Shown piece after piece: positions 835 through 60,396 of a stretch of 64,000 nucleotides of DNA. Origin of the DNA: a virus; IMG/VR virus record IMGVR_UViG_3300046703_000247, positions 19,234 through 83,233 of that record, one strand, 5' to 3'. Position 1 is the stretch's first letter. The number at the start of each line of letters is the position of its first letter. The notes under the pieces are model-generated. The model was not told where the DNA came from. It searched no databases and worked only from the letters and a program-made list of their open reading frames with translations. The translations under genes were made by a program, and so were the position numbers.

Positions 835-1215
835 ATGTCTAGAGCCATGGAATACGCGGGCTTGGGGACGATGCAATTGCGGCCCTTTAAGCCCGGCCAG
901 TTGCTTCACCGTCGCGTTCAGCAGCCGCCGCGCGAACTCCCACTGCTGACCACGCGGCAGGCGCAGGTTGTCGCGCTGGTGCGGGAGGGTATCCACTCCA
1001 CAAAGGAGATTGCGTTTCGCATGGGGTGGACGCCTCAAAGCGCGAAAGTGATGCTGGTGCTGCTCTATCGGAGACTGCAAGCGAATGGCTACGGCGTGGA
1101 CAACTTGACCTCGCTAGCCATCTGGGCCTTCGCTCCAGAGGTTCTCCGCAGGGAAGAAAAGGGTTCTAGGAAAAAGGAACCGTCCGGTTCCGTTTCCCTG
1201 GAGCTTCAACCGTAA
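835..1215 (+). CDS. LuxR/GerE-type HTH protein
   Basis: LTTRQAQVVALVREG.STKEIAFRMG.TPQSAKVML..LYRRL; C-terminus is encoded by repeat copy 1. Confidence 0.65.
   Translation: MSRAMEYAGLGTMQLRPFKPGQLLHRRVQQPPRELPLLTTRQAQVVALVREGIHSTKEIAFRMGWTPQSAKVMLVLLYRRLQANGYGVDNLTSLAIWAFAPEVLRREEKGSRKKEPSGSVSLELQP
1150..1211 (+). repeat. Dispersed hairpin element copy 1 (in-frame, LuxR C-terminus)
   Basis: AGGGAAGAAAAGGG..GGAAAAAGGAACC-GTCC-GGTTCCGTTTCCCTGGAGCTTC. Confidence 0.9.
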
Positions 1216-1239
1216 AGCAATTCTCGACAGTTTAGGCCC

Positions 1240-2691
1240 ATGCCCGCACCTGGCGCAGTCACTTTCACTCCCTTCGTGGACATCTACGGGATGCTCTCGC
1301 TCAAGGACATCCGGGTCTCCTCGTGGGAGGACGACAGCGGTTCGAACGGAGACGTAGCCCCTTACGTTCCGCTGAGAACCCCGCTCTTCAAGAGCCGCAT
1401 CGACCCAACTTCGGGCGCTCCCGCCCAAGATCAACGCAATGTGTTTGGAGCATCGCAGGATGCCCGCATAGAGGCCGGCGCAAACCTGACGCGCACCTGG
1501 GTACTGTTCTTCGAGAAAATCGCCGAGTTGCTCAAGCGAGTGGTCAGCCGTTCCCGGCGCCTGCATGCGCTGGTTTGCTACATCGATGAGACCGAGACGG
1601 ATCAGGTGTGGGCCGAGATTCAAGCGGTGGACGCTTCGACCGACCCCATTGTTGTGGGCAATCTGATACCGCCGCCGCTGCTCCGCTCCTTGCCCCAGAC
1701 GGACGCCTCTCCCTACCCACGTGACTGGGTGGTAGGCGATTACGTGGTCTGGAACGATCCCGAGAGATCCGCGGTGGACCTGACCCGCCGGCGTTATGAG
1801 TGCGGTCAGATCACGGCCATCTCCGACACGGGAGACTGGACAATTCGGCGCCACTGGCCCGAATCGACTCCCGGGAACCGCGCCACCTTCGGCAGCTACA
1901 TGGAAGCGCATCCGGCGGTACGCCTCTACCGGATTGAGGTTGCCCACTTCACCTATGAGATTGTCGAAAACGCCTTCATGGTGGACAGCGATGGGAACCG
2001 CTCGGGAGTTCCAAAGCGCTGGGACATTGTACTGCCGCATGCCGCAGTCGTGGCCGTGTACATGGCGGCCGAAAACAGCACCGGGATGGGCCCGGCCACC
2101 GAAGTGAATTGCAGCTACCCGTACACGAGCATCAACCCCGCCTTGCTCCCTCCCGCTCCCGGGCTCCGGACTCACGTGGGGGCCGCGTACTGGTTTGAAG
2201 AGCCGGGAACCATTGCGCTGCGCACCCGGCCGGAAGGCTTGACGTTCAATTTCTACCCGACACTGCCCATCCGGATTCAAGACTGGGCCACCATCCGGAC
2301 CATGTACGGGTTTCTGGGGACTCCCTCCGGCGACCTCACCGTCCGAGTGAAGATACTCCGTGCCTCCGAGCGGCTTCCAGACGTTCAGCTTTACGATCCC
2401 AGCCAGCCCTGGCGGGACCTCGAGGACCTGGTCTGGGCCAGCGGGGAGATTTCGAGCGCAGACAAGGGGCCCGGCTGGACAGCCCCTGGAACCAGCAACC
2501 CGCCCCGGGAGCGCCGGATGCCGTACTGCGAAAACGACCTGTTCTATTGGGACCCCGAGGACGTGGGCGATCCAGACTACGTCAAGAAAGCTTGGCCGGT
2601 ACCGGTGATGGAAGCCGACGCCTGGCTGACCTTTGACATTGTCTCGATGGCCGGGGCTCCGGCGGACATCAGTGTGGTGGTGCAGACATGA
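1240..2691 (+). CDS. Hypothetical, probable virion/tail protein
   Basis: 483-aa ORF with genome-typical codon usage in the structural operon. Confidence 0.5.
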   Translation: MPAPGAVTFTPFVDIYGMLSLKDIRVSSWEDDSGSNGDVAPYVPLRTPLFKSRIDPTSGAPAQDQRNVFGASQDARIEAGANLTRTWVLFFEKIAELLKRVVSRSRRLHALVCYIDETETDQVWAEIQAVDASTDPIVVGNLIPPPLLRSLPQTDASPYPRDWVVGDYVVWNDPERSAVDLTRRRYECGQITAISDTGDWTIRRHWPESTPGNRATFGSYMEAHPAVRLYRIEVAHFTYEIVENAFMVDSDGNRSGVPKRWDIVLPHAAVVAVYMAAENSTGMGPATEVNCSYPYTSINPALLPPAPGLRTHVGAAYWFEEPGTIALRTRPEGLTFNFYPTLPIRIQDWATIRTMYGFLGTPSGDLTVRVKILRASERLPDVQLYDPSQPWRDLEDLVWASGEISSADKGPGWTAPGTSNPPRERRMPYCENDLFYWDPEDVGDPDYVKKAWPVPVMEADAWLTFDIVSMAGAPADISVVVQT

Positions 2692-4831: not shown

Positions 4832-4832
4832 C

Positions 4833-5693
4833 ATGCCGCCAATCGTAATTGCAGGAGCGATTTCAGCCGGAGCTTCTATCGGTGGGGCTCTCATTAACAA
4901 GAGTTCCGCCAATAAGGCGGCCGAGATTCAGGCCGAAGCCGCACGCAAGGCAGACGAGGTCGCCAACAAGCAGGCGGGCTACGTGGCCGACACGGGTTAC
5001 GGCCTGGCCACCAACCTGCGCGACGCGGGCACCGCCAACGAGCAGACGCTGCAGCAGGTATCGGGAACCGGCGAGAAAGCGCTGTCCCCGTACCTCGAGG
5101 CGGGCACGTATGGGGTGACGGCGCTCAAGGACCTCGGTCAGAACTTGAACAAGCCGGTCACAATGGCCGATTTACAACTCGACCCCGGCTTCCAGTTTCG
5201 GATGGAGGAAGGGCAGAAGGCGCTGGAGCGCTCGGCCTCAGCTCGAGGAGGTCTGCTCGGCGGCGGAACCCTGAAATCCCTGGCGCGCTATTCGCAAGGC
5301 GTAGCTTCGGACGAATACCAGAAGGCCTTCGACCGGTACCAGACCGACAATGCCGCGCGCTTCTCAAGGCTGTCCACGCTCACAGGTGTCGGGCAGAACG
5401 CCACCGGCAGCCTGCTGGATCTGAGCAAGTGGTACGGGACCAGTTCCACCGGCAACCGCACGGATACCGAATCGAGAGCTGCCAGCCTGGCCATGGGCGG
5501 AGTGACCGGGGCGGCCGATCTGCGCATGAAGGGGGCTGAGGCCGGCCTACAAGGAGCGAACGCATCGGCAGCCGGCACCGTGGCATCGGGCAACGCCTGG
5601 GCGCAAGGATTGAGCGGGGCGGGCTCGAGCATCTCGAACGCCATCCTGCTCTCTCAGATGCTGAAGCCGCAGACGCAGCCAATCAATATCTAA
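4833..5693 (+). CDS. DNA ejection protein, P22 gp7-like
   Basis: A/G-rich; DPGFQFR..EG.KALERSASARGGL.GG.TLK.L..Y.QG.AS.EY signature. Confidence 0.75.
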   Translation: MPPIVIAGAISAGASIGGALINKSSANKAAEIQAEAARKADEVANKQAGYVADTGYGLATNLRDAGTANEQTLQQVSGTGEKALSPYLEAGTYGVTALKDLGQNLNKPVTMADLQLDPGFQFRMEEGQKALERSASARGGLLGGGTLKSLARYSQGVASDEYQKAFDRYQTDNAARFSRLSTLTGVGQNATGSLLDLSKWYGTSSTGNRTDTESRAASLAMGGVTGAADLRMKGAEAGLQGANASAAGTVASGNAWAQGLSGAGSSISNAILLSQMLKPQTQPINI

Positions 5694-5695
5694 TT

Positions 5696-5750
5696 GAAGC
5701 CACCAGGGGCGAGACCCGGCGGTCTCTCCCCCGGTACCCCCTCGTCCCTG
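5696..5750 (-). repeat. Hairpin element copy 2 (intergenic)
   Basis: Reverse complement CAGGGACGAGGGGG..GGGGGAGAGACC-GCCG-GGTCTCGCCCC. Confidence 0.9.
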
Positions 5751-5764: not shown

Positions 5765-5820
5765 AAGGGAGAAAAAGGGTTTGGGAAAAGGAACCATAGG
5801 TTCCGTTTCCCGAGGCCCCA
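5765..5820 (+). repeat. Hairpin element copy 3 (intergenic, back-to-back with copy 2)
   Basis: AAGGGAGAAAAAGGG..GGGAAAAGGAACC-ATA-GGTTCCGTTTCCC. Confidence 0.9.
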
Positions 5821-7153: not shown

Positions 7154-7210
7154 GGCCGAAGCCTCGGGGACGAAACCCGGCGGTTTCTTCCCCAAACCCC
7201 TTCATCCCTG
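7154..7210 (-). repeat. Hairpin element copy 4 (intergenic)
   Basis: Reverse complement CAGGGATGAAGGGG..GGGGAAGAAACC-GCCG-GGTTTCGTCCCC. Confidence 0.9.
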
Positions 7211-8191: not shown

Positions 8192-8248
8192 AAGGGAAAA
8201 GAAAGGTTCGGAAAGAGAAACCTCGGTTTCGTTTTCCGAGGCCCCCAG
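8192..8248 (+). repeat. Hairpin element copy 5 (intergenic)
   Basis: AAGGGAAAAGAAAGG..CGGAAAGAGAAACC-TC-GGTTTCGTTTTCCG. Confidence 0.85.
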
Positions 8249-8263
8249 TAAAGGAACCGTGCC

Positions 8264-9821: not shown

Positions 9822-12800
9822 ATGCCCCTTACCGATACCCCCGACAGCTTCGTGCCCGACGTTCCGACCCCGGAAGAGGTCGAAGCCGAGTTGCGCGCGG
9901 CTGCCAAAGCCCACGGCCTCGACGAGGACCTGGCGCTACGTGTGGCCAACCGGGAAAGCCGGCTCACGCAGTCCGCCACCTCCCCTAAAAAGGCGCGCGG
10001 AGTCATGCAACTGATGCCCGAGACAGCCAAAACCCTGGGCGTCGATCCAGAGGACTGGCAGCAGAACATCCAGGGTGGGGTGAAGCTCCTCAAGAGTAAT
10101 CTTGACTACTACAAGGGCGACACCAGGAAAGCGCTCGCGGCTTACAACGCCGGACGCGGACCCGTCGACAAGTACAACGGCGTTCCCCCCTACAAGGAAA
10201 CCCAGGAGTATGTGGATAACATCCTCGGCAAGCCCGTAGCCCCGCCGCCGAGTTTCGAGCCGGATCCGCCCAGCTTCGAAGCGGACCAGCCGGTCACCAT
10301 CCCCGGCCTACTTAAACCGGGCAATATCGACCTCACCGCCAGGCCCGTTCATAAGAACCCTGATGGCACAACCTCAACAGTGCTTTCCATGAGGTTTGGC
10401 GAGGATGGCAAGGAAATACTGGTTCCCAAGGTCAGTGAGGATGGGACCTGGATACTGTCCGACGAAGAGGCGGTCGACACCTACCACAAAACGGGGAAGC
10501 ACCTCGGGATCTTCAAGGATGTGCCCAGTGCGAACGCCTATGCGCAGCAACTCCACGAAGATTACGCCTCCGGAAGAATCAAGTTAAAGACCCCGGGGGC
10601 CGCTGACCCGCCCAGCTTCGAAGCGGACCAGCCGACTGCACTCCAGGTTCCCGCCCAGATCCCCAGCCGAGCCGAACTGGCCACGATGGGCGAGCGCTTG
10701 GGCGTCCTACGCATGACGCTCGATACTCAGGCCGAGCAGATGGCCCGCAACCGGGCCGCGCTCGAGGCCGAGGCCCAGCAGTTCACCCCCAAGACCCCTC
10801 CCGAGCAACTGGCGGCCTTCGACCAGAAGGTGAAGTTGCACAACCTGGACCTGGCCGAGTTCCAGAACGCGGTCGCCGGGCACGCCAAAGACATCGAGGC
10901 GTACAACGCCGGGACGGCGGCGTTCAACGAGAACCTTGGGCGCTATGACCAGGCAATGAAGGTGCCGCCGGGCACCCAACGGACAGGACTCCCAGGAATG
11001 CCGCTCACCCGCATGCCGGTGCAGGTGCAGCCGAGCGGGGTGTTAGGCCTGGCTAAAGAGTCGCTGCCTTGGAAGATTGCCAACACCCAGGCATTCAAGG
11101 CGCTGGGATTGCCCACCACCGCCGACGCCTACGACTATTCGGTGGAGGCTGCGAAGAAACTTGTAGCGAAGGTGCTGGGTGAACCGAGCGAAACCACCGC
11201 CAGGAAGCACCCAGGCGTGGCAGCAACCCTCACATTCGGCGCGCGCGTTGCCCGCCTGTTCCCTGAAGTGGCCGACTTCATCCTGACGCCGGCGGGGACG
11301 GCTACGGCCATCGCGACCGCGGTCGCCCCTCCGGCGGTAGTCGCAGGTGTGGGCGCCGCCTTCAGCACAGACATCGCCCTGAAGGCGAATGACGCCATCG
11401 AAGTAGCCCGGACCAACCCGACTCCCGAGAATATCGGGGAGGCCGTCAAGCTGTCGGCTATGGCTCTCTTGCCCTTCCTGCGGCCGGCGGCCGAGTTGGG
11501 CCGGAAGGTCGAACGCGGGATCGAACAGCACAACGTCCAGGCGGCCCAACTGGTGGAGCGGGAGCGCACCCAGGGGTTAGGAAAAGAATGGGGGCAGGCC
11601 ATCCTTGGGGAAGAGCCGGTCCGCGTCGAGATTGCGGGGAAGTCCCACACTATTCAGGCGCTGGGCGGGAATCCTGTTGCCGGTAGTGTCAGACCGCGTC
11701 CCACCTACCAAGTGGTGGATGATGCCACCGGCAAAGCCGTCTACTCGGGAGAAGCTCCGGCGGTCCAAGGTTATCTCGAACAGCAGCAGGCAGTTCGAGT
11801 CGGCGGGCTCGTAACATCTGTCGACCAGATCTCAGCGCAACTCGATACTGAGTATTCCAAAGCCGTGGCCGACCGCGCGGTGGCCCAATCGGTTCGGGAC
11901 CAGATCAGACAACTTCAGAAATTCTCGCCCGAGCAACTGAAGGCCGAGCAAGCCAAGGGCAAGGTCATCCTGGACCACGAGGCCGAACTCAACCAAAAAG
12001 GCGTAGCGGGGCTCTCGGAAACAGACCTGGTGGAGGTCCAACAGCACCTCCAGATGGTCGATGATCTACTCGCCGGGAAGCCCATCAGCGACAACTTTGC
12101 CGAACAGGCCGTCAAGGAAGCCGACGCACATATCTCCGAAATTCAGAAGAAACGGGCACAACTCGGAGCCGAAGGCACGAAGCTCCCACAAGCGCAGCGG
12201 CCCGCCGCCCCCGGGCCCGCCGCTCCCGCCGTGATCGCCAAAGGCACCACCGTCGCCGGCGGGAAGATCACGGTCACCGAGGTCAAAGGCGGCAAGGTCG
12301 GCTTCGAAAAGACCATGCCCGGCGGCCAGAAGATCCGCGGAACCATGCCGATCGAAGCCTTCCGGTCCCAGTTTCTTGCGACGTCGCAGCCTGTTCAGCC
12401 GCAGCCTACTGCTCAGCCGAAGCCTCGGGAGACGGAACCTACGGTTCCTTCTCCCAAACCCACTTTTTCCCTTTCGGAAGCCGAGCAGGCGCAGTACGAC
12501 CAGGTCGCGGAGTTCGCCCGCACCGCCGGAAAGCCGCTCACCGACAAGTTGCTTTGGGAGAAGTTGAAGATTCCGCGCCACGAGGGCGCAAAGATCCTCG
12601 CGGTGATGAAGCAGCAGGGAGCGCTGGACCAGCAGGGGCAGCCGCAAGCTCTTTCGCCGCAGCCTGTTGTTCAACCGCAGCCTCCAGGGGCGAAACCTGC
12701 GGTTTCTCCCCTAGCAACCCCTCTTCCCTTGAACGCCGCCCCGGTCGGCCAAGCCTACCAGGGCGAGCTGGCGGGCGACTGGTCGCCCTACTACCGGACC

Positions 12801-15800
12801 ATGGCCGAGGCGCAGGCCGCCGGCGCGAAGAACGTGCAACTCGGGGCGGCTCCGGAGGTATGGAACGGGCAGAAGTGGGCGGGGGCGGTATCAAATGATG
12901 CCAAGCAGCAGGCTCAGCCGCAGCCTCCAGGGGCGAAACCTGCGGTTTCTCCCCTAGCAACCCCTCTTCCCTCCGAACCCCAAACGCCCGCCCTTGAGGC
13001 GCTGAAGCGCCAAATGTCGGACTTCTACAGACGGCGCGTGCGCGTGAACGACCGCACCTTCGTGGGGGGCGTCTACAATCCCAATCGCTCCGAAGAGGAA
13101 CGCCAAAGCATTGACGCCCAACTAGAAGAGATTGATTCCGAGGCGCGCAGTGTTCTGTCGAAGGTCCCACAGAACGACTTGCCCGAGCTAATGAGCGCGG
13201 ACAACCGGATGCGGGTCCTTGAAGGGGACAATCCCCTAACCCGAAATGACAGAGGAGGCCCTGACTGGGCAGCGCAGGAATGGCTGAACCGGATTGTCGA
13301 GGTGACGCCGGAGCGCGCCGCATTGTCTGCGCCGACAAGCACCCCAGCCCCAGCAGGTAAGCAGATTGCCGCGCCCCAGCCCCCCGCTGTGCGCGCGCCG
13401 GCCCCCGCCGAGACTCCAGCATCCTTCGAGCCGGACACACTGCCCAGGAGCCTGGAACTGGAGCAGAAGCACGGTCTCTCACCCGCCGAGGCAGCCGTCA
13501 TCAACCATGCGCTCGACCGCCTGCCCCAGGTTCGCAAGGACTACTCCAGCGCAGCGGAGGCACTTCAGAAGGAAGCCCTGCGGCTGGCGGCGCCGGCGAA
13601 CGTCCCGCTCGACAAGATCGCCAACATCAAGTTGCTCAAGCGCATCCTGGCGGACTACCTCGACCCCGAGCAGTTTAGAGCCGCAGAGGCGCAGAACAAG
13701 GAACCCTGGCAGATGACGCGGGAGGAGTTCACCGCCCCGGTGCGTGAGGATCTGGCTCGTTGGAATTCGTCCTTCGATGAGTTGCGCGCCAAGAGAGGCG
13801 GGACTCGCGGACAGACCCCAGCACAGGCTCTCTTTGATGCGAAGCAGAAGCACGAAGAGGGAAGAAAGCCCTACCTCGAACGTATCGCGGAGACAGAGCA
13901 ACTTCATGAGCGGAACATTCGCCGTGCGGTTGCAGACGGTAAACCCGTTCCGGCCGCAGTCCTAGCCGAGTACCCCGATCTGAAGCCCGCGCAAGCACTC
14001 GACCCCGACCAAGTCTACCGACGCGCACAGGCCGAGATGGAGCGGCGCCATCTGAAGCAGGGGCTGGAGCAGTTAATCGCCCTCGACCCCGACAACCCGC
14101 GTGAAGACGATCTTGGAGTTGGCAACGATCTTGAGGACGTAACAGGAAACCTGCAAAGCATCGGCTTCTCCAGACCGGAGATCCAGGCCGTACTGGAAGG
14201 CCGCCGCCAGCGGCTCCAGGCGCACCGTGAGCAATCCGCGCGCGCGGCTGAAGCCATCAAGCCGGCGATGCCTGGGGGCGTGGTCTATGAAGCGGTGGGC
14301 AAGGCTGTGGGCGCTTCGCGCGATAAGAAGGACTCCCAGATGTTCGTGTGGCGCACGGACAGCGAGAAGCAGGGCTACGAGTTCCTGAACGCGCTGGGCA
14401 ACAACCTCCAATATGGCCACAAGGATCTGCCGGCCGCCATTCGCGCGGTAGCCGAGCAGAACCCAGATTGGACGGATCTATCAAAGACGGCTCTCACTGC
14501 GCTCGGAAGGGAAGAAGTGGTCTCGGAGAAGAAACCGCAGGTTGCGTCTCCGGAGTCTCAGCCGAAAGAAAAGCCCACCGAGTACGACTTCGCCTCCACC
14601 CAGGTGAACCTCCCGCCGGAGATCGCCCAGGCCATGCAGGAGTTCAACGCCCAGATCCCAGATGAAGACCTGGCGGTAGAGGCGGGAGCCAAATACGGCG
14701 GGGAGACAGCCGCCAAGGGCCGCGAAGAACAGTCGCACGTCACCCTGCTCTACGGAATCAAATCCGAGAACCCGGACGCTGTGCGCAAGTTGCTGGAGAA
14801 CCAGCCGCCCATCACCCTGAAGCTGGGCAAGACCTCGGTGTTCGCAGGAACCGACAACGGCGATGTGCTCAAAATCGACGTGGAATCAGAGGATCTGGAG
14901 CGGCTCAACAAGCTGTTGAAAGACAACCTGGAGTTCACCGAGACCCACCCAGGCTACAAGCCCCACGCCACGCTGGCCTACCTCAAGGTGGGGAAGGGCA
15001 AGGAGTGGAGCGGCAAGGACGTGCCGGGAGTCACCGGGAAGACTGTAACCCTGGACCGGATTGCATTCTCGGACAAGAGCGGGGAGCAGACATCTATCCA
15101 ATTGAAAGGTGAGAAGCCGCAGACTACTCCTAAGCCGCAGCCTCGGGAGACGGAACCAACGGTTCCTTCTCCCAAGCCCGCTTCTTCCCTTTCGGAAATC
15201 CCGAAGCCGAAGGCCTACACCTTTGCCAATCACAAGTTCATGTCGGCGAAGGACAAGCAACTCACCTTCAAGGCGTGGATCACCTTCCTCCGCAACGGGC
15301 TACAACAGAAGGACTTCACCAAGCGGCTGTACGAGCAACTCCACCAGCACATGGGCTTCATCGCCCACTACAACATCAACGGGTTCTACGAGGAGTACTT
15401 CCTGCACGGCGAGGACACCGAGCGGTTCATTCAGCACTTTGACCTGGCCGACCACCGCTACGGTCCGGACTCCACCAACGGATTCTGGATGAATAGTGAC
15501 ACCGCCAAGGATTTGAACCGCGCCATGGTGGATGAGGCGGCGCCGTATCTGCCCGGCCTGTTGGAGAAGGCGGCGGCGGGCCAGAAGGCCGAAGACCTGG
15601 CGGAAGCGCAACGGCTCCAGGCGAAGCACGGCGCGCCGGCGCCGGCGCCGGTTGTCACCCATAAACTTCAGGGCGGAGGGATCGTACAGGAGTTGAAGTC
15701 TCCGGAATTGCGTTTTCAGAAGAACGACCACGTTCGCTGGACCGACAAAGACGGAAATGCCAAAGAGGGATACGTCAGCCGCGTCGAGGGTCACCTGGTT

Positions 15801-18800
15801 TTCATCGGGACAGAGTCAGATCAGAAGTTCGGGATGTTCCGCCCGGTGATGGCGAGCAAGGTCGAACTGATCGAGGATGAGGGCGACACCCCCACTCCGA
15901 AAAGGGATGAAGGGGTCGAGGGGAAGCAACCGCAGGTGGCGTCCCCTCGGGCTCCAGCCAAGACAGAAGCGCCCGCCAAGACCGGAGATATCGAGCGCCA
16001 GATCACCGAAGCTGAATCCGACTTGGCCGCCGCCCGTAAGCTCTACGAGGGCACCGAAGACGGAACACTCGACCAGGAAGAAGCCATCCGGGAGATGCAC
16101 CAGGCGCTGGCCGAGGTGAACCGCCTCCAGGCCGAAGCCGCCAAAGAGAACCCGCTCCTCACCGAACAGGCCGAAGGCCGCCGTCAGACCATGCCCCCGA
16201 TGCCCAAGGGCAAGGAGAGCCACTGGCAGCAGTTGATGGACGACTCCTCCGACCTGGGGGCCACCGCCGGCGAGGAGTACGTCGTTGACTACGGCCTATG
16301 GGTCGAGCGCGGCAAACCGGCAGGCAAGGAACCCGAGAAGCCCAACGCCGAGCGTGAGACCTCCATCGACCGCGGCGAATACCCCAAGGGTTGGCTGCGC
16401 CAGGCGGCCGCCGAGTTCCAGACCAGCTTTGATAAGGAAGTTGCCAAGGGGCTGAAGGAGATTGAGCAGGAGACCGCCAGAAACGCGGCGGGAGCGGCGG
16501 CCGACGCGGCGCGCGAGCTCGAGATCCGCAAGGCTGAGATTCAGGACCTGGCCGCCAAGTTGCGCGAGCACGCGAGCGGCGATCGCACCGACCTGGCGGA
16601 GCGCAAGCGGCTCGTCACCGCCGCCCTAGACCTGAAGACCGGCAAGAAGCTCAACGAGGACACCGATGCGCTCTGGGAGCAAGCAATCCGCCCGGCCATC
16701 GAGGCGATCCGTCGCGCCGCGGTGGACAAGATTGAGGGCAAACAGATCACCCCTGACACCCCTGTCTGGGAGATGCGACCAGCGCAATACCTGGAGCACC
16801 GGCGCGAACAGGCGTTGCAGATTCCAAAGGGCAGCTTCCTCGAGCGCGAGCCCGGGGAGTGGCGCACCGAGTTTCTGGTAACGCTGTCCAAGGAGGAACT
16901 TGGGGTATTGCTCCGCCTCAACGGTCTCCCCATAAACGGCACCAAAGCCATGATGGTGCAGCGCTTCCAGGATGCCCGCGCGTTGCGCAACCAGTTCGAG
17001 GGCAAGACGGCGGAGCAGATCGAAGAGGAGATGACTGGCGCGGAGATCGACCGCGCGCTGGAACAACTCGGGGCGGGGAAGTACGGCAACAAGCTGACGC
17101 GGGCCGGGACAATCCTCGGCACCATTCAAAGCCAGCGTAAGAAGGGCGAGAGCGTCCTGGCTGAATTCAACTATCAGCGCGCCATCTATCGGGCAGTGGG
17201 GAAAGGCCAGCCGGTCCCCGAGGAGATCCAGAAGAAGTACGGCGCCTTCCAGACAATCGAGGATGTTGCCGCCGCAATTCCAGAAGAGGGGACCGCGGAA
17301 CCAGACAAGAAAATCAGGATTGGCGACCGGGTCACATGGAAGGGATTCGACAAGGTTGTACGGGTCGGCACGGTCAGCCACATTCGCCACCACATAGAGA
17401 ACGGCCGGGAGCGCAATACGCTGGAGATTGACGGCGACGACCATGGCCGCTACTTCCCTGACGACGTCGACGTCACGAAAGTAGCCGCCGAAACCAGGGA
17501 TGAAGGGGGCGCGGGGGAAGCAACCGCAGGGTTGCGTCCCCAGCAGGCTCCGGCAGAAACACCCGCCGAACCGACGGAATACGCCTTGTCGGGCGACACC
17601 TACCGCTTCAAGAACATCATCCGGGCCCAACTGCAAGGCAAGTGGAACGGCAAAGAAAAGGTGTGGATTATCCCCGCCAGCCAGGTGGAGGCAGCCCGGA
17701 AACTCTCAAAGAAGATCGAGGTGAAGCCCTTCGGGCAGGTGAAGACAGCCCCCGCCCAGCCGCCCATGGACGAGCAGACCGCCTCGGCCGTCATCCAGGA
17801 TCTGGTCAAGACCATCTCCGAAGCCCAGGAAGAGGTGCACTTCGCGCAGAACGACAAGGACACCGACAAAGGCGCAAGCACTCAGGCAAACGAGGCCAAA
17901 CTGGCTACGGCCGTCAAGGATCTGCGGAGCGTGGTAACGGAAGCCAAGAAGTACTTGGACTTTCCAAACGCACCGGAGAGCGATAGGGAAGCTTTGCGGA
18001 CTCAACTCTACCGCGCCGAGCAAAACCTCAGAGGATATGAGCGCCCCGGCCCCTCCATCAACCAGACCATCGAAGCCGAGAAGTACGTTGAGAAACTGAC
18101 GGGTCCCGAGCAGACCTACGCGGCGAAGTACAAGGACTACTGGCTGGGAAAGATCGCCGAAGAGCCTCCCTACGTCGGCGTCCACATCAACCCGCTGCGC
18201 GCTGAAGGCATCCGGACACATCTAAAACACGTCCTCGGAAAACGGGTAGAGGTTACCGGCGGGCCGGAAGCTACGAAGCCCGCGACCGAGACGCGCGTCC
18301 CCAAGTGGGGCAACCTCACAGAATTGGAAGCTGAGCTGCTCCGCGGCCTCAATAGACCACAGCCTATTGGTGATCTCTTTGATTCGATCGGTCAGCATTG
18401 GCCTGATTCCGAGAAAATCAAGGTGCTTCATGCACTCGACAGCCACGGTCTGGTAAAAGCCATCCACGGCGGCGGGTACGAGCGCACCGAGGCGGGCACC
18501 GTCGCAATCGGCAAAGGACCGGCGGAAGCGTATCTTCCGAAGGGGACCGCGCCGGCGCCTGCACCGAAGGGCAGCTTCAAATACGAGTTCCAGGTGCACG
18601 GCGAAGGCGGCAAGTGGAGCGACAACGCCCTGCGCTTTGCCACCGAGAAGGAAGCCCAAGCAGCCGGAGATGAGCACCTTACGCGCTGGACCATGGCCGA
18701 TGCGGTCCGGGTGGTGCCGTCCGAGGATGCGCCTAACTACCGCTGGGACGACGACCAGTACAAATCCGTCCGGCTGTCCGGGAAGGAAGAGGGGGTGCAG

Positions 18801-28925: not shown

Positions 28926-28985
28926 CTGCTACTCCAGGGGAACGAAACCTCACGGTTTCTTTCCCCTCGCCCCCTTTCATCCCTT
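28926..28985 (-). repeat. Hairpin element copy 14 (intergenic)
   Basis: Reverse complement AAGGGATGAAAGGGGG..GGGGAAAGAAACC-GTGA-GGTTTCGTTCCCC. Confidence 0.9.
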
Positions 28986-30614: not shown

Positions 30615-30672
30615 AAGGGAAGAAAAGGTTCAAGGAAAAGAAACCGCAGGTTTCGTGTCCTTGGGCTCCAGC
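30615..30672 (+). repeat. Hairpin element copy 16 (probable 5' UTR)
   Basis: AAGGGAAGAAAAGG..CAAGGAAAAGAAACC-GCA-GGTTTCGTGTCCTTG. Confidence 0.9.
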
Positions 30673-35915: not shown

Positions 35916-35972
35916 AGGGAAGAGGGGTTCCAGGGGAGAAACCGTAGGGTTTCGCCCCTTGGGGCTCCGACC
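35916..35972 (+). repeat. Hairpin element copy 18 (upstream of resolvase)
   Basis: AGGGAAGAGGGG..AGGGGAGAAACC-GTAG-GGTTTCGCCCCT. Confidence 0.9.
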
Positions 35973-40799: not shown

Positions 40800-42614
40800 C
40801 TACACGAGAGCAGCAGCTTCTTCCACATCGCTGTCCTCATTCTGCTGAGACTCCAAGGGAGCGCAACCTGCGGTTTCTCTCCCTTGGAAACCCACTTTTC
40901 CCTTCAGTTTCGCGGCCTGCCAGTTCGCCATCAGCACGTACTTGGGATTCACTTCAATCCCCACGAAGTTGCGCCCCAGCTTCACCGCGGCCAGGCCGGT
41001 GCGGCCGGATCCGGCGAAGGGATCGAGCACTGTACAGGGTTCCACTTCCGCCGGCATCAGTGGATGGGGACACGTCGGCCGCCAGCCGAGGGTTTCCGGC
41101 GCGGGGAAGGGGTTGTCGTGCTGGCCAGTTGATATGCGCGCACCCTCGGTATTCAGCGTCATCCTTAACTGTGAGAACTGCGACCCTTCCGGAGCCGCCT
41201 TCGACTCCAGCCGCGATTCGCGCTCGAGGTGCGCCATCCGATGAACACCCTGCGCCTTCAGATCCTGCCGAGGATGCAGGTCCCCATTGCCGGGCTTCAC
41301 TGTGATCCGCTCCCACGGCGCGCCGCACACCGAGCAGCAGCCGTGCGCGCTCGTGGCGGCTAGGATGCAGGGCGAGACCAGGCGCTCTGGGAACGTGGCA
41401 AAGTGACTCAGCCAGGTCGAGGCGCCGCACAGGCAGACCCTGACGTGCTGAATCTTCTTCGATTCGCAGGCGGGACATTGGCGGGACAGTTTCGACCCGC
41501 GTTCACTCCAAGAGTGCTGGCATTCCGTGCAGGTCATTGCCGCTTCGAGTTTCCGGTAGGTGGATTGCTCGTAGCAGGTGTCACACGCCGGGCACATCTC
41601 GACCGCGAAGGGCTGCGGGTTGACCAACATCGCGAGGGGCTCTCCGTCATCGTCCACCAGCAGGCCCTGAAAGTCGGGTGAGTAGGTTGCAAGCGAGGCG
41701 AAGAACCAGTCGGAGTTGCGGCGGACGCGGGAGGGGACCAGTGCGTGCACGGCGGCCGAGAAGCTCCGGTTCTGTTTGGCGCGAATGCGCCGGTCGGTCT
41801 GGTGGGCCGGGTCTTGGTCCAAAAGCATCCGGCTGTTCGGCCCCATGGCTTTCGGGTTGACGCCGTTGCCGCGCGCGGGGGAATTGGCGCTCGATGCGAT
41901 CCGCACCGCCTCCTGGTCGTAGAAGGTGGTCTCGCTATTGGCGAGCATGAAGATGTACTCGACCATCGAGGTCGGACGATCCCTCACCGACTCGGGCATG
42001 CCGTTTTGCTTCACCCAGGGGTTTGCTGAGCGCAGATACCAGCCGTCCGCCTGCAGCGCCAGGGCGACGCGGGCGGGGAGCATGGCGAGGTCCTTGGGTT
42101 TCAGACCAGGTATCGGCATGCGATTTGGCTGAGACGTCGGTCCTTTCCAGCGCTCGCCTTGTGAACCACCGCCCGGGCAGTTTCCAACCTTGCCGCCGCC
42201 GGTCGCGTAGCAGTCCCCGAGGTTCAGCCAGCAACTTCCCTCTGGTCTGAGCACCCGCCGAACCTCGCGGAATACCGCGGTCATGTGCTCGACATAGAGC
42301 TGCGGTGTGGGTTCCAGGCCCAGGGCGCCGCGCCAGGCGGAGCAGCCGGAGCAGAACTGGCCGGTAGAACCGTGCTCATCCCTGCCAACCGGAGAGGTTC
42401 CGAGTGTGGGGTCCCAGGCGCGCCCGTTTCGTCGCGTCGGCTCTTGCTCACCCCATCTGTGCGCGCACATCGGATCGCCGCCCCACACGCTGGGGGCGAT
42501 GCCGTAGTCTCGGAGGCCCCAGTAGGGCGGGGAAGTCACAACGCAGTGCACCGAGTTCTCCGGCATCCCCGCGAGCACCTGCAGCACGTCGCCCTGCAAG
42601 ATTTCAAAGCTCAT
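40800..42614 (-). CDS. Beta-class N4C/N6A DNA methyltransferase with Cys-rich inserts
   Basis: VVTSPPY near the N-terminus, HFATFP, VLDPFAGSG.T near the C-terminus. Confidence 0.9.
   Translation of the reverse strand: MSFEILQGDVLQVLAGMPENSVHCVVTSPPYWGLRDYGIAPSVWGGDPMCAHRWGEQEPTRRNGRAWDPTLGTSPVGRDEHGSTGQFCSGCSAWRGALGLEPTPQLYVEHMTAVFREVRRVLRPEGSCWLNLGDCYATGGGKVGNCPGGGSQGERWKGPTSQPNRMPIPGLKPKDLAMLPARVALALQADGWYLRSANPWVKQNGMPESVRDRPTSMVEYIFMLANSETTFYDQEAVRIASSANSPARGNGVNPKAMGPNSRMLLDQDPAHQTDRRIRAKQNRSFSAAVHALVPSRVRRNSDWFFASLATYSPDFQGLLVDDDGEPLAMLVNPQPFAVEMCPACDTCYEQSTYRKLEAAMTCTECQHSWSERGSKLSRQCPACESKKIQHVRVCLCGASTWLSHFATFPERLVSPCILAATSAHGCCSVCGAPWERITVKPGNGDLHPRQDLKAQGVHRMAHLERESRLESKAAPEGSQFSQLRMTLNTEGARISTGQHDNPFPAPETLGWRPTCPHPLMPAEVEPCTVLDPFAGSGRTGLAAVKLGRNFVGIEVNPKYVLMANWQAAKLKGKVGFQGRETAGCAPLESQQNEDSDVEEAAALV
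40844..40904 (-). repeat. Hairpin element copy 19 (in-frame, MTase C-terminus)
   Basis: Reverse complement AAGGGAAAAGTGGG..CCAAGGGAGAGAAACC-GCA-GGTTGCGCTCCCTTGG. Confidence 0.9.
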
Positions 42615-45975: not shown

Positions 45976-46031
45976 AGGGATGAAGAGGGTTTGGGGGAAG
46001 CAACCGCCGGGTTGCGTCCCCCGAGGCTTCG
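45976..46031 (+). repeat. Hairpin element copy 20 (close to copy 4)
   Basis: AGGGATGAAGAGGG..GGGGGAAGCAACC-GCCG-GGTTGCGTCCCCC. Confidence 0.9.
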
Positions 46032-46204
46032 AAACCCCAAGGTGAGGGTGACTAGGACAGGGCATCGAAGAACCTCTCTGCTATGTGCCCGATTGCCCAG
46101 AACACACCAATCCAGAAAAGGACCACCACCACAGCCATCAACAGCCAGCCGCGGATGAGCGGCCAGTTCCACCCCGTGTGTGTCAGGTTGCGGAGCATCA
46201 CGCG

Positions 46205-46966: not shown

Positions 46967-48288
46967 TCACAGGGACGCTTGGCTGCGCGTGGCGCGAAAT
47001 TCATCCGTGTCCTCTCTGATCTGCGGTACCCACTCGTCGCGCTTCTCGGCGTTGTAGGTGCGGTAGTAAGCCTCGAGTCCCAGCGCGTGGGCCGTGCAGC
47101 GCACACCGATGCGGTGCCAGATGATGCACAACCATTCGCTCGGGCGCCGGCGCGGGGTGAACGTCTCGATGCGTTCGGGCCGCTTGTGCTCTCCGAAGAC
47201 CCAGTCGCGGAGGCGCTCGATGGTGCTCGCAGTTTGAAACTCGTCAGTAATCATGTTTTCGCCGCCTGTTTTTTGGATTTGGCGCGGGGGCCCCGCCGCT
47301 CGGGTGCCCCCCGCTGTACGCTCAAGCCGGCATTTACTCCGATGGAGGTTGGCGGCGCTACGCTTGGCCCTGTCACGCGCCCGGCTTTCCCGCAGCTCTC
47401 CGGGCTGGCACACACTGCCGCTCCTCGCCCACCGGCCAGTGCTTTCGCTTGGGTGTATCTCGTGATGATCTTGTCTACTTCCTCCTGGGCCACGCGGCCG
47501 CGGGTGGGGAAGTTCTGGATGTCTTCGATGCTCATGGCGCCGCTCTCTGCGCTTTTTCTCCGACGACGCGCAGCTCATGGTATTGGTAGGTCCGCGTCCA
47601 ACCATCCGGGAAACGCACGATTATGCGGCCGTAGTCCCAGCCAATCACTGTGCCGACGTCGAGGTCGGTTACCGTCACCTCGGCTTTCACTTCGACCTGG
47701 TCGCCGACCTCGATCTTCATGCGCTCGCACCTGGCGGGGGCGCAACCTGCGGTTTCTCCCCCACCGGCCCCTTCTTCCCTTCGCGCGGATCGATCTTCTT
47801 GAGCAGGATGTTGTACTCAGTGGCCCTCTCGCGCCAGCCCTGCGCGTGTGGCGGAGGTTTCGTCCCGGGCACCTCACAACTCATCTCGGCCTGGAACATC
47901 ATCTTGCAGTGGGCAATTGCGTCGCGCAGCGCGCGGGAGATCAGGGAGGGGCGGGGAACGCTCACCCCGACGCTCCCTTCGTGAAGGTGACCTTCAGCCC
48001 GTGTCCAAATTCCGACCGACCCGACACGATCCATCGCCTCTTTTCCTCTTCGACCTCGCGTAGCAACGCGGCCCAATACGGGCGGTGTGCACCTTCGAGC
48101 CAGCAAGTCACCACCAACACAGCGGCCTCGCAGTTTGAACACAGGTCCGCTTCGCCCGGTGCCCACGAGCACGGCGGATCGCACGGCTCGCGCTCCGTGC
48201 AGCCGCAGACCCGGCAGCGGATGTAGCCGTCGCGGTCGTGGTGGAGGACGGCCTCGCGCCGCTGCGGCTTCAAACGCACGGTCTTCAT
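46967..48288 (-). CDS. Run of small coupled hypothetical genes, including a CxxC protein at 47962..48288
   Basis: 4-bp start/stop overlaps at 47251-47254, 47532-47535, 47717-47720 and 47962-47965. Confidence 0.5.
47727..47781 (-). repeat. Hairpin element copy 21 (in-frame, C-terminus of 47717..47965)
   Basis: Reverse complement AAGGGAAGAAGGGG..GGGGGAGAAACC-GCA-GGTTGCGCCCCC. Confidence 0.9.
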
Positions 48289-57021: not shown

Positions 57022-57024
57022 TTC

Positions 57025-57079
57025 GTAGCCCCCAGGGGCGAAACCCTGCGGTTTCTCCCCCGGTACCCCTTCTTCCCTG
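57025..57079 (-). repeat. Hairpin element copy 22 (intergenic; close to copy 2)
   Basis: Reverse complement CAGGGAAGAAGGGG..GGGGGAGAAACC-GCAG-GGTTTCGCCCC. Confidence 0.9.
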
Positions 57080-57349: not shown

Positions 57350-57407
57350 AGGGAAAAAGTGGGGCTGGGAGAAGAAACCGTCGGTTTCGTCTCCCAGAGT
57401 CCCAGCC
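57350..57407 (+). repeat. Hairpin element copy 23 (intergenic)
   Basis: AGGGAAAAAGTGGGG.CTGGGAGAAGAAACC-GTC-GGTTTCGTCTCCCAG. Confidence 0.9.
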
Positions 57408-58135: not shown

Positions 58136-58153
58136 TTACCTCCGGATTCGACC

Positions 58154-60337
58154 ATGGTCACCGTAACTAGCGTCTCGAAAGAACCCGAAACTCCCGACTG
58201 GGGCCAGCGCGACGAGTTTATCCGCACTGCCCTGCGGCGTTTTCATCTGGCTCGCGACGCGGAGCGCGACATCCGGGACAAGGCGCTCGATGATCTGCGC
58301 TTCTTCCAGGGGGATCAGTGGCCGGCAAGCATCGTCGCCGAGCGCAATGCGGATGGGCGCCCGTGTTTGACCATCAACCGGCTGCCGGAGTTGGCGAGCC
58401 AGCCCCTCAACCAGCAACGGCAAGGGAGACCGCAGATTCAGGTCAACCCGCGCGGCGGCGGCGCCACGCTCGACACCGCTCACATCATCCAGGGGCTGAC
58501 GCGCCACATCGAGGTGGCGAGCCAGGCTGAGGCGGCCTACGATTGGGCGTTTCAGTACGCGGTGATCTGTGGCTTTGGCTACTTCCAGTACGCCACCGAG
58601 TGGGCCGACGAAGCCGACGAACAAAGCTGGGACCTCGAAATCCGCGTCAAGCCGGTTTTGAATCCCTTCGCGGTCTACTTCGATCCCTCCTGCCAGGACC
58701 GGCTGTATCGCGACGCGAAGTGGGCCTTTGTGGTGGAGGATCTCCTCCCGGAGGACTACAAAGCCAAGTACAAGGGCTCCCAAATGGCCAGCCTCTCCGA
58801 GTTCCGCTCCATCGGGGACGGGGAGAAGGAGTGGTTTCGGGACGGCATGATCCGCGTCGCCCAGTACTGGACCGTGGAATTTGACACACACACACTGGTA
58901 CAACTCGCCGACGGAAGAACCATCCCCGAAAACGACCTGGACAAGTATCCCGACGCCACCATTGCCCAACGCAACGGCGAACCCCTGCTCCGCGAAGTCA
59001 GAATTCCCAAAGTGCGCTCCGCGGTAATCAACGCGCGCGAGATTCTGACCGGGAGCAAAGAGCAAGCACCCTTCGGAAAGCTGTTTCCAGGGAAACGAAT
59101 CCCTATCATCCCCGTGCTCGGCGAAGAGTTAATCGTAGACGGCAAGCGGACGTTGAGCGGCATCGTGCGCTATGCCCAAGACGCGCAACGCCAGTACAAC
59201 TACATGCGCACGGCGCTCACTGAGCAGATCGGCCTGTCTCCCAAGGCGCCCTACATCGCCGCCATCGGCCAAATCGAAGGCTTTGAGGAAATCTGGAACA
59301 ACGCGAACCGGAAGAATTACTCCGTCCTCCCCTACAACGCCAAGGACGTCAACGGAACCCTACTGCCAGCTCCCCAGCGGAACTTCGGAGAGCCGCCGAT
59401 CGCTGCCATCGCCGCCGCCGTGGCGCAGGCCGACCAGGATCTGAAGTCGACCACCAGAATTCACGAGCCGATGATCGGCACCATGGGTCCGGAACAGTCC
59501 GGAAGGGCGATTATCGCCCGGCAAAACCAAGGAAATCTGGCAACATTCGCCTATGTCGACAACTTGAGCCAGTCCATTATGCGCCTCGGCGAGGACCTGG
59601 TCGCCATCATGCCCGCGGTGTACGACCGCCCGGGCCGGGTGGTGCGCATCGTCAAGCCGGATCAGACGCACGAAACGGTCACCCTGAACCAGCCTTTCGA
59701 GAAAAACCCCGAGAAGCAGCCCGGAGTGATGGAGTTCTACGACCTCACGACCGGCACCTACGACATCACCATCAGCGTCGGGCCGGGGTACGAAAGCAAG
59801 CGCCAGGAGTTTGTGGCCTCCGTGCTCGACCTGGTCCGCGCGGCGCCCCAGATCGCGCAACTCGTGATGGATCTGGTGGTGCGGCACATGGACTGGCCGG
59901 GAGCGACCGAGATCGCCGACCGGCTGAAGAAGGCCCTGCCGCCTGGCTTACAGGAAGAGGGTGACGCTGCCGGTCCCGGGCAGGTTCCACCGGCCTTCGC
60001 CGCCCAGATGGAGCAGTTGATGGAGCAGCACGCCGCGTTGGTCAAGCAGTTGAACGAGGCGACCAGTGTGATTGAGAGCCGGCGCATGGAGATGGAAAGC
60101 CGGGAGCGCATCGCGGAAGTGCAGGCCCGGACCCAACTTCTGGTAGCCGAGCTGAAGAACCAGAGTGCGGAAAGCCAAACGCTGTTGCGCGAGAGCCTGG
60201 CGCGGATCGACCAGAGGCTGGACCAGTTGAGCGGCAATCAGCCGATTCAAGGTTCGAATTCTCAGCAGCCGCAGCCTGCTGGGGCGCCACCTACGGTTGC
60301 TCCCCCACAAGCCCCCTCATCCCTTCAAGGCGGTTGA
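58154..60337 (+). CDS. Portal protein, P22 gp1-like
   Basis: D.RF..G.QW, RPCLTINR, G.VR...D.QR.YNY, SG.AI.ARQ.QG; precedes scaffold and coat. Confidence 0.88.
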   Translation: MVTVTSVSKEPETPDWGQRDEFIRTALRRFHLARDAERDIRDKALDDLRFFQGDQWPASIVAERNADGRPCLTINRLPELASQPLNQQRQGRPQIQVNPRGGGATLDTAHIIQGLTRHIEVASQAEAAYDWAFQYAVICGFGYFQYATEWADEADEQSWDLEIRVKPVLNPFAVYFDPSCQDRLYRDAKWAFVVEDLLPEDYKAKYKGSQMASLSEFRSIGDGEKEWFRDGMIRVAQYWTVEFDTHTLVQLADGRTIPENDLDKYPDATIAQRNGEPLLREVRIPKVRSAVINAREILTGSKEQAPFGKLFPGKRIPIIPVLGEELIVDGKRTLSGIVRYAQDAQRQYNYMRTALTEQIGLSPKAPYIAAIGQIEGFEEIWNNANRKNYSVLPYNAKDVNGTLLPAPQRNFGEPPIAAIAAAVAQADQDLKSTTRIHEPMIGTMGPEQSGRAIIARQNQGNLATFAYVDNLSQSIMRLGEDLVAIMPAVYDRPGRVVRIVKPDQTHETVTLNQPFEKNPEKQPGVMEFYDLTTGTYDITISVGPGYESKRQEFVASVLDLVRAAPQIAQLVMDLVVRHMDWPGATEIADRLKKALPPGLQEEGDAAGPGQVPPAFAAQMEQLMEQHAALVKQLNEATSVIESRRMEMESRERIAEVQARTQLLVAELKNQSAESQTLLRESLARIDQRLDQLSGNQPIQGSNSQQPQPAGAPPTVAPPQAPSSLQGG
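60268..60325 (-). repeat. Hairpin element copy 24 (in-frame, portal C-terminus)
   Basis: Reverse complement AAGGGATGAGGGGG..GGGGAGCAACC-GTA-GGTGGCGCCCC. Confidence 0.85.
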
Positions 60338-60396
60338 GGGAAGAAAAAGGTCTTAGGGAAAAGAAACCGTCCGGTTTCGTTTCCCTGAAGCAGCAG
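60337..60396 (+). repeat. Hairpin element copy 25 (back-to-back with copy 24; close to copy 1)
   Basis: AGGGAAGAAAAAGG..TAGGGAAAAGAAACC-GTCC-GGTTTCGTTTCCCTG. Confidence 0.9.

Follow-up and report, generated by a model that had tools for sequence, protein, structure and literature searches.

A dispersed DNA hairpin repeat with a mirrored 5' box at the gene and domain seams of a peat-metagenome phage

We analysed a window of 64,000 nt of viral DNA (bases 19234-83233 of the 83,233-b IMG/VR virus record IMGVR_UViG_3300046703_000247, whose source is a peat metagenome) that carries many copies of a dispersed repeat of ~60-75 nt. Read along its purine-rich strand, the repeat begins with a 5' G/A/T box, which is followed first by a purine arm and then by the pyrimidine arm that pairs with it as a hairpin. 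The window has a G+C content of ~62% and no tRNA genes, and a megablast search of its positions 1-20000 against 50,697 deposited phages returned no near relative. Gene identities, taken from PHROG and Pfam matches, include head, packaging and ejection proteins, several DNA enzymes (an HNH protein among them), a pair of transcription proteins and a giant open reading frame (ORF) of several domains. The gene calls themselves come from a simple codon-usage model made for this analysis, in which weakly scoring small ORFs are uncertain.

The family stands out clearly from the background: A seed motif matches the window 24 times, against 3.4 ± 1.9 times in shuffled sequence (none of 100 shuffles reaches 24), and a stricter gapped pattern matches 17 times where 0 are expected. 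An iterated nhmmer profile delimits 31 full-length copies in the whole record, 25 of them in the window (14 on the plus and 11 on the minus strand, from 1151 to 60389), which is exactly the number, strand distribution and span given by an initial annotation made from the letters of the window. The profile was built from the copies themselves, so its E-values serve merely to delimit them. Pairwise identity between copies has a median of 0.62, with a few distant pairs at 83-96%; those at window positions -14064 and 57023, for example, are 91% identical despite the distance, in line with the widely separated sub-families that the annotation had noticed. The family has no counterpart in Rfam: at gathering thresholds the whole window gives 0 matches, and a permissive threshold over 5600-8400 gives only a chance-level miRNA match (E 1.3).

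In an alignment of all 31 phage copies, RNAalifold and a separate pair count both yield a single 14-pair helix, in which 93.8% of cells are paired (78.9 ± 1.1 after shuffling) and 10 of the 14 pairs have changed on both sides. The covariation score of the stem is 0.497, vs 0.206 for shuffled alignments (0 of 500 reach it), and all slid registers score lower; as the copies are mutually related, the shuffle tests overstate their independence. What covaries keeps pairing and not sequence: the inner stem occurs as GAAACC/GGTTTC, GGAACC/GGTTCC, GCAACC/GGTTGC and GAGACC/GGTCTC, as well as in three imperfect versions. An A.G mismatch is kept in 24 of the 25 window copies and 30 of the 31 genome copies, the exception being 34208-34264, and 12 window copies have C-GNA-G triloops. 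The initial annotation had described these compensatory changes, the covariation of the outer stems and the four inner stems correctly, and its counts of mismatches and triloops are exact. The stem extends outward past what it had drawn, to 14-17 bp, with the spacer after the box pairing to bases after the 3' arm. The hairpin loop varies between 2, 3 and 4 nt, and some copies have one of ~50 nt: the provirus copies L005:3224-3349 and L018:4215-4341 (the same sequences recur in L013, L021 and L063) have a ~50-nt insertion in the loop with the box and both arms intact.

The fold belongs to one strand of the DNA. Wobbles in the stem comprise 22 G.T cells vs 3 A.C cells, and under DNA parameters the strand bearing the purine box is, in all 31 copies, predicted to fold more stably than the opposite strand (mean -13.2 vs -10.7 kcal/mol, from programs that cover Watson-Crick and wobble pairs only). 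Both orientations of the repeat are found within one-directional operons. These observations uphold the strand-specific, DNA-level hairpin proposed earlier: the repeat acts at the level of DNA rather than as an RNA gene.

The annotation had overlooked one part of the repeat, the relation between box and stem. The unpaired 5' box (consensus AGGGAAGAARGGG), read backwards, repeats the purine arm of the stem and changes along with it. The box-to-arm mirror score of the phage copies averages 7.82. Dealing the boxes to the arms of other copies lowers it to 5.89 ± 0.25 (no trial in 2000 attains the observed value), and scrambling every box lowers it to 4.68 ± 0.24 (none in 500); read as a direct repeat of the arm, the box scores 6.1. 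Much the same holds for 56 distinct copies taken from other records, at 9.18 vs 7.24 after dealing (0 of 2000). With the register set by purine identity alone, the phage copies have 21 box Ts opposite an arm A and two opposite a G; in the copies from other records the numbers are 69 and 4. The mirror blocks cover 7-11 positions with 0-2 mismatches, and the loops are 2-5 nt in 30 of the 31 copies and 8 nt in one.

Judged from the letters of the repeat, the match between box and arm follows the antiparallel G.G-C, A.A-T and T.A-T code of a purine-motif triple helix. Holder et al. (2015; PMC4666352) define four classes of intrastrand triplex motifs, of which class I has the order 5' reverse-Hoogsteen block, purine block, pyrimidine block, the third block lying antiparallel to the purine arm with G.G-C, A.A-T and T.A-T triads over 6-15 positions and loops of 1-6 nt. 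The layout of the present repeat, with 5' box, purine arm and pyrimidine arm in that order in 31 of 31 copies, is in its sequence that of a class I design, and the purine strand may adopt the three-stranded fold.

Copies sit at module seams, both between gene modules and between the domains of the giant virion protein (Table 1). At least 10 of the 31 lie inside well-supported ORFs; the remainder occupy short intergenic gaps, often with a stop codon 1-24 nt upstream or a start codon 2-40 nt downstream. The giant ORF hosts eight copies between amino acids 865 and 3006, four in each orientation and all of them open. Its four minus copies have one common relative frame, which is also the frame used by the minus copy at the end of the portal gene, and its four plus copies agree in frame at both ends, one of them by way of an internal shift that an extra loop base corrects. 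Across the record, 30 of 31 copies are free of stop codons in the frame of the plus copies, where composition would predict 14.5. The encoded peptides are rich in P, T and E and are unrelated between the two orientations; conservation of the copies is therefore at the nucleotide level. At 12674-12972, two near-identical copies 243 nt (81 codons) apart look as if element and spacer had recently been duplicated in tandem, in frame.

Orientation alternates along the record beyond chance, with 22 switches in 30 steps (binomial tail 0.008). Among the 15 neighbour pairs less than 1.4 kb apart, nine are head-to-head (boxes inward), two tail-to-tail and four direct. The eight head-to-head pairs outside the giant ORF enclose 16, 17, 234, 271, 576, 984, 1064 and 1323 nt, and one of the enclosed stretches carries DUF6527 and DUF3307 genes, both above their Pfam cut-offs. 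The members of a doublet belong to different sub-families. In most head-to-head pairs (e.g. 5692/5766, 7155/8194 and 60268/60343) the minus, left-hand member has a G-rich outer stem (GGGGG/GGGGA) and the plus, right-hand member, just upstream of a core gene, an A-rich one (GGAAAA), which hints at two functional sub-types. Three small ORFs (at window 29002, at window ~8170 on the minus strand and at L001 ~16281 on the minus strand) share a MNRRGF-type, twin-arginine-like start that lies ~10-25 nt from the box side of an element, after a shared AGAAT motif; because ORF start and motif are shared, the repeated unit of this sub-family is longer than the element.

Table 1 Copies of the repeat and annotated genes in the window. 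Every copy was placed by the profile trained on the family and by its position relative to the gene calls.
Feature	Position	Strand	Context or basis
Copy	1151..1209	+	nhmmer E 4e-11; 30 nt upstream of gene 1240-2691; right half of head-to-head pair whose partner lies just before the window
Copy	5692..5749	-	Overlaps stop of ejection-protein gene 4833-5693; head-to-head with 5766 copy, 16 nt apart
Copy	5766..5819	+	Immediately upstream of gene 5822-7144
Copy	7155..7209	-	10 nt past stop of 5822-7144, 7 nt before gene 7217-7525; left end of cassette
Copy	8194..8249	+	Right end of cassette begun at 7155; 14 nt before gene 8264-9820
Copy	12415..12473	-	In frame, giant ORF amino acids (aa) 865-884
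Copy	12674..12730	-	In frame, giant ORF aa 951-970; near-identical to 12916 copy
Copy	12916..12972	-	In frame, giant ORF aa 1032-1051
Copy	14507..14555	+	In frame, giant ORF aa 1562-1578; N-terminal edge of 2H phosphoesterase module; junction and frame shared by giant gene of another phage
Copy	15133..15191	-	In frame, giant ORF aa 1771-1790; C-terminal edge of 2H module
Copy	15901..15958	+	In frame, giant ORF aa 2027-2046
Copy	17496..17552	+	In frame, giant ORF aa 2559-2577; block common to phage G004 begins 11 aa later
Copy	18785..18837	+	In frame, giant ORF aa 2988-3006; last before methylase-helicase part
Copy	28931..28978	-	23 nt before ORF 29002-29427; left end of cassette
Copy	30043..30101	+	Right end of cassette begun at 28931
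Copy	30616..30672	+	Upstream of zinc-ribbon ORF; AAGGAG-type ribosome site, then ATG, after copy
Copy	34208..34264	+	Divergent, sole copy without A.G; inside N-terminal part of PD-(D/E)XK nuclease ORF 34096-35082
Copy	35916..35971	+	40 nt upstream of serine recombinase gene 36012-36674
Copy	40846..40904	-	Inside 3' end of DNA methyltransferase ORF 40800-42614 (-)
Copy	45976..46032	+	Intergenic, between two minus-strand genes
Copy	47725..47781	-	3' end of weakly supported ORF 47717-48034 (-)
Copy	57023..57078	-	1 nt past stop of 55996-57021; left end of 271-nt cassette with ORF 57111-57341
Copy	57350..57406	+	Right end of 271-nt cassette with ORF 57111-57341
Copy	60268..60325	-	Encodes C-terminal tail of portal (58154-60337); relative frame of the minus copies of the giant ORF
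Copy	60343..60389	+	5 nt past portal stop; head-to-head with 60268 copy, 17 nt apart
Ejection protein	4833-5693		PHROG/Pfam
Giant ORF, 5,786 aa	9822-27182	+	N-terminal SLT, 2H phosphoesterase, SAP, Eco57I-like methylase, SNF2 helicase; 8 copies as inter-domain linkers
PD-(D/E)XK nuclease ORF	34096-35082		PHROG/Pfam
Serine recombinase	36012-36674		PHROG/Pfam
DNA methyltransferase ORF	40800-42614	-	PHROG/Pfam
Sigma-70-type protein	52023-52673		PHROG/Pfam
NusG-like protein	53160-53705		PHROG/Pfam
Large terminase	54210-55700		PHROG/Pfam
Portal	58154-60337		PHROG/Pfam
Scaffold	60473-61630		PHROG/Pfam
Major head protein	61693-62907		PHROG/Pfam

The same seams can be followed in other element-bearing phages. 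Of the four compared, three have the head and packaging module in common with this phage, at 28-59% identity, and G001 has only scattered genes in common with it. When the phage is compared with the four by blastn, the elements themselves account for 5 of the 13 matches, at 86-93% identity over 46-64 bp. The stretch of the giant protein between the copies at 14507 (+) and 15133 (-) is a 2H phosphoesterase (36.7 bits, cut-off 27; the Acb1 model scored below its own cut-off), and the same module on its own is found again in the giant proteins of two of the four phages, at 48% and 41% identity. In phage G004 an element marks this N-terminal boundary of the 2H module within the giant gene as well, with orientation and frame unchanged. 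Another block common to both phages starts 11 amino acids after a further copy, and the long methylase-helicase block starts ~80 amino acids after the last copy in the giant ORF. The copy-flanked gene 5822-7144 has 64-71% relatives on three element-free contigs that share nothing else with the phage, apart from a distant relative of a second phage gene on one of them. These coincidences of elements and modules are positional.

Other comparisons gave less. The neighbouring 518-amino-acid gene had no relatives with which a filled site could be compared with an empty one, and no element was found near the portal relatives (27-48% identity). Among sequencing runs listed for window 1000-10900 there was no RNA data set and a single run, probably the source DNA. 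Contigs of this probable source run contain three joints at element edges (5749>8186, 5753>8193 and 15190>8151) with sides of 30-54 nt or low depth, which most likely arise from cross-matching of repeat copies and are unusable; the low-depth joints between the box edges of the 5692 and 8194 copies could reflect such cross-matching or a variant without the intervening 2.4 kb. The DUF968 gene at window 30990-31337 has 81.5% protein (75% DNA) identity to a gene of the otherwise unrelated G001, a sign of recent exchange near the element-rich region. The sigma-70-type gene (regions 2 and 4) adjoins the NusG/KOW gene at 52023-53705, immediately upstream of the terminase genes, which suggests that the phage has its own late transcription control; homologues are present in the related phages G003-G005.

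We find the repeat in other viruses as well, at far lower copy number. An exact-pattern scan of IMG/VR returned 18 further loci on 12 other viral contigs, the model gave 2-11 matches on five whole viral records, and on four of these five the nhmmer profile detected 2-6 copies, against 31 in this phage. Scanning one genome per species returned 53 loci, of which 49 are labelled Acidobacteriota (Bryobacterales, Bryobacteraceae, Solibacteraceae, Terriglobia and Acidobacteriaceae); because of this distribution and the peat source of the record, Acidobacteriota are the likely host lineage. Five host genomes of 5.6-7.4 Mb have 3-11 model matches each, with 150 candidates scored per genome, and 0, 1, 22, 5 and 9 matches to the exact pattern, against 29 in the 83-kb phage. 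With stricter filters and 40 candidates scored each, 2 of 121 genomes of the class had a match, one of them the reference genome itself. Density in the phage is thus roughly 200-fold above that in Acidobacteriota host genomes, a difference of two orders of magnitude. None of the three outcomes that the initial annotation had set as refutations was obtained: the stem covaries significantly, Rfam has no matching family and the host chromosomes are far poorer in copies.

Where copies do occur in hosts, most of them belong to prophages or lie a little way inside one end of an unannotated element that resembles an insertion sequence (IS), and they are otherwise rare in chromosomes. One host genome has all 10 of its matches within 65 kb of a single contig that overlaps a provirus record, and among 15 tested host loci without the IS protein described below, three adjoin homologues of proteins of this phage group (terminase at two, the DUF968 protein at one). 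A CRISPR-like repeat or decoy was considered and rejected: in hosts and phages alike, the model matches are scattered single copies and do not form arrays.

The IS-like element is a repeated unit of 1.7-1.9 kb. Three host genomes have matches with identical scores because these belong to the repeated unit, which is present in seven copies at 99.7-100% identity in one genome and in three copies in each of the two others; in a fourth host genome, 10 contigs end at the element. Each unit (e.g. L083:2241-4183, L076:2393-4122 and L081:3921-5843) encodes one protein of 505-540 amino acids, and tblastn detects this protein next to the element at 25 of the 53 host loci. The gene always lies on the box side of the element and reads away from it, even among proteins that are 24% identical. 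All eleven extracted 5' regions, in the sense of the gene, run from an antisense element (box toward the gene) through a conserved TTGACT-like hexamer, 17 nt and GATGAT to a purine-rich ribosome site and a start codon; if this reading of a promoter, made by eye, is right, the element lies upstream of it and so outside the IS mRNA. A conserved terminal sequence precedes the element in ~6 of the 11 regions, the rest differing at the end or having been extracted too short. The opposite end of the unit has no element, and at the unit ends we saw no target duplication and a terminal inverted repeat of ~6 bp at most. The alternative that the element is a target of the IS instead of a part of it was rejected, as the unit runs 45-150 nt past the element to a terminal sequence conserved between genomes.

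Searches of Pfam, NCBIfam and PDB sequences assigned the 505-540-amino-acid protein to no family, giving only sub-threshold winged-helix hints. It has at least 6,462 homologues at E<=1e-5 in a word-indexed search and 6,182 representatives at E<=1e-3 in an exhaustive one, mostly on contigs of ~2 kb and labelled hypothetical. The unit is probably an undescribed mobile-element family, and its protein is, by its fixed place beside the repeat, a candidate cognate gene that resides in hosts and not in the phage. The phage record contains no homologue of it that we could find, and the phage copies stop before the IS terminal sequence. The initial annotation had seen no cognate transposase; this holds for the phage record, in which no Y1 HUH gene (RAYT; PF01797) was found while 6 of 14 control genomes matched, and does not extend to the hosts, which have the candidate.

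Given the fold constraints, strand bias, habitat and positions observed, we tentatively favour a reading in which the repeat is a DNA-level, structure-forming junction repeat that promotes recombination, an account whose chances we put at slightly less than even. The purine strand, when exposed in replication or recombination, would fold as a hairpin with the third strand laid on, and the folded strand would stall or break the fork, or invite cutting. As otherwise unrelated phages share the same 50-60 nt, the element could serve as a portable recombination junction: These common nucleotides would be the place where unrelated phages recombine, with the frame kept when the copy is inside a gene, so that cassettes and protein domains could be gained, lost or swapped through the element without loss of frame. 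Copies would multiply by such recombination and possibly also by the IS enzyme acting in trans, and their movement may use both. Spreading by copying, as the initial annotation proposed, may take place, although a filled site beside its empty counterpart was not found. Of that annotation's interpretation, the strand-specific DNA hairpin stands, to which we add the three-part architecture, the host candidate gene and the position of copies at module and domain seams; priming, loading or nicking roles received no support in this analysis. A precedent for the favoured reading comes from E. coli, where triplex-motif repeats are linked to local genome rearrangement and loci of the TMECO repeat are more rearranged between strains (PMC4666352). 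In T4-type phages repeated motifs are proposed to mediate the shuffling of modules (PMC2839356).

Several points weigh against this junction-repeat account. We observed no recombination event at an element, and since the nearest relatives share only 27-71% protein identity, no breakpoint is mapped at the nucleotide level. The median identity of the copies is low for homologous exchange between most pairs, and the head-to-head pairs 16-17 nt apart are unexplained by simple homologous exchange and look like an inserted unit. The constant place and polarity of the repeat in the IS-like element, as read from the host sequences, point to an enzyme-recognised site. The mirror alignments behind the box-to-arm scores were optimised for each copy, with the controls in the same search space, and related copies are not independent. 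The record is estimated to be 86% complete and has no end repeats. For E. coli TMECO, the authors of PMC4666352 detected no triplex either in double-stranded DNA or by in vivo footprinting.

Some of these points would be met by a non-autonomous REP/REPIN-type element or miniature inverted-repeat transposable element (MITE), the hairpin being the cis site of the IS protein, by whose action solo elements and element-flanked cassettes would be copied into phage DNA as it replicates. We consider this unlikely but a serious contender. It would account for the protein encoded beside the element on a fixed side and with fixed polarity in 25 of 53 host loci, for the multi-copy state of the unit in host genomes, for phage cassettes with an element at both ends in the outward polarity seen at the IS end, for the resemblance of the 16-17-nt head-to-head doublets to REPIN units, and for copies in ORFs, in both orientations and near-identical at a distance. 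It fits less well that the element is at one IS end only, that the IS terminal sequence is missing from the phage copies, that the IS ends show no target duplication and only the short inverted repeat noted above, that the partners of a doublet come from different sub-families, and that the protein has no recognisable catalytic family and no phage homologue that was found. A MITE would be expected to have terminal inverted repeats and a target-site duplication and to derive from both ends of an autonomous IS; the flanks of the phage copies were inspected for such features by eye. Solo copies are rare in host chromosomes, which would be odd if the process were host-driven, and here too a filled-vs-empty site was not found. 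The junction-repeat and IS-mobilised readings can both be partly true. A bolder combination, which we regard as doubtful, is that the element is the cis module of a large unannotated mobile-element protein family (505-540 amino acids, >6,000 soil-metagenome homologues), turned by Acidobacteriota phages into a triplex-forming, frame-preserving 'splice point' that exchanges accessory genes and injected anti-defence protein domains between unrelated phages.

Readings at the level of RNA or of duplex DNA fare worse. REP hairpins in E. coli stabilise upstream mRNA, and a hairpin in phage mRNAs could likewise protect 3' ends, be processed, or act as a pause or terminator read through with the help of the phage NusG-like factor; many copies do lie 1-24 nt past a stop codon, and the sigma-70-type and NusG-like proteins are encoded just before the late genes. 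We nevertheless judge such a role quite improbable: The copies take both orientations in one-directional operons, with the complement folding worse in 31 of 31, the element in the IS appears to lie outside the mRNA, and the mirror box would have no role in an RNA hairpin, purine-motif triplexes being reported not to form in RNA (PMC4666352). The stem is not followed by a T-run, and a canonical promoter or terminator was rejected as well, window 1-20000 having 0 promoter-like sites vs 2.4 expected and 20 terminator-like sites vs 21.6; an earlier study cited in PMC4666352 found PIT elements to be without promoter or terminator activity. A double-stranded binding site for a regulator or recombinase (the phage serine recombinase, the sigma-like factor or a nucleoid protein) seems very improbable. 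The conserved palindrome of the inner stem would suit it, as would the copy 40 nt upstream of the serine recombinase gene, a gene also present in three of the four other element-bearing phages. On the other hand, loops of 2, 3, 4 or ~50 nt alter the spacing of half-sites, covariation preserves pairing and not sequence, and strand asymmetry would be irrelevant to a duplex site. The specific candidate of a serine recombinase site was rejected, as the copy directly upstream of the gene is found only in this phage and not in the three others that have the gene, and as loop length varies; so was an ECF-type promoter in the GAAACC/GGAACC core, for which no suitably spaced second box was found by eye in either orientation.

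Triplex-motif repeats have been known for decades in bacterial chromosomes without agreement on their function, and the best-studied family is reported to be intergenic and absent from mobile DNA, whereas here the same architecture is concentrated in a phage. The link to an IS and the position at the borders of exchangeable genes and domains provide a concrete and testable setting for recombination driven by a fold, and suggest how giant multi-domain virion proteins may be built from modules without loss of frame. The analysis also flags a very abundant unannotated protein family of soil as a probable new mobile-element enzyme.

Among known systems, the subterminal hairpins of IS200/IS605 elements and integron attC sites resemble the repeat in being strand-specific, imperfect hairpins with a conserved unpaired position, subterminal in a mobile element. 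They differ in that no Y1 transposase of the IS200/IS605 kind was found in the phage record, and that no ordered array of same-orientation cassettes, each ending in an attC as in integrons, was seen there, orientations alternating instead. We know of no description of either IS200/IS605 hairpins or attC with a mirrored third arm. The REP/BIME/REPIN elements with their RAYT proteins are similar in being short, imperfect, covarying and strand-specific palindromes, single or in inverted doublets, with a repeat-flanked proposed cognate gene. Unlike these, the phage record yielded no Y1 transposase gene, the present candidate protein of 505-540 amino acids could be placed in no family and is accompanied by the element at one side alone, and its hosts hold few copies where REPs number in the hundreds.

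Two systems are alike in where they sit. PeSL of T4-type phages, a sigma-70-like promoter plus terminator stem-loop at the borders of accessory genes (PMC2839356, Arbiol et al. 2010; PMC4122927), is a short repeated motif for which shuffling of modules by recombination between copies has been proposed. The present repeat has no promoter-like sites and no excess of terminator-like ones in window 1-20000, and copies also occur inside ORFs. Rickettsia palindromic elements (RPE) are palindromic repeats inserted in frame into protein genes and translated as an extra peptide (review PMC10969869), as are the copies in the giant ORF. RPE, however, are ~150 bp long and belong to another lineage, whereas the phage copies are inserts of ~19 codons at protein domain boundaries, in both orientations with a fixed frame for each.

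The closest likeness is to BoxC/PIT/TMECO of E. coli and the ITxF classes, in which a hairpin is joined on one strand by a third arm that mirrors the purine arm under the purine-motif code; like BoxC/PIT/TMECO, the present repeat is conserved, scattered in both orientations and tied to local variability of the genome. In a limited literature search we found no phage- or IS-borne triplex repeat described. The accessible part of PMC4666352 does not mention Acidobacteria and mentions phage once, and the supplementary motif tables of that paper could hold Acidobacteria class I motifs. BoxC/PIT/TMECO is there described as class II, with a G/C-rich 37-nt consensus, as confined to intergenic DNA and as having no association with phages, plasmids or transposons. 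Going by that description, the present repeat is set apart from TMECO by its class I order with the third arm at the 5' side, by its mixed G/A/T composition, by a longer stem with a fixed A.G, and by its presence in phages and an IS-like element and its translation inside ORFs. The present repeat thus shares the architecture of BoxC/PIT/TMECO and not the family, and differs from it in habitat and in being translated.

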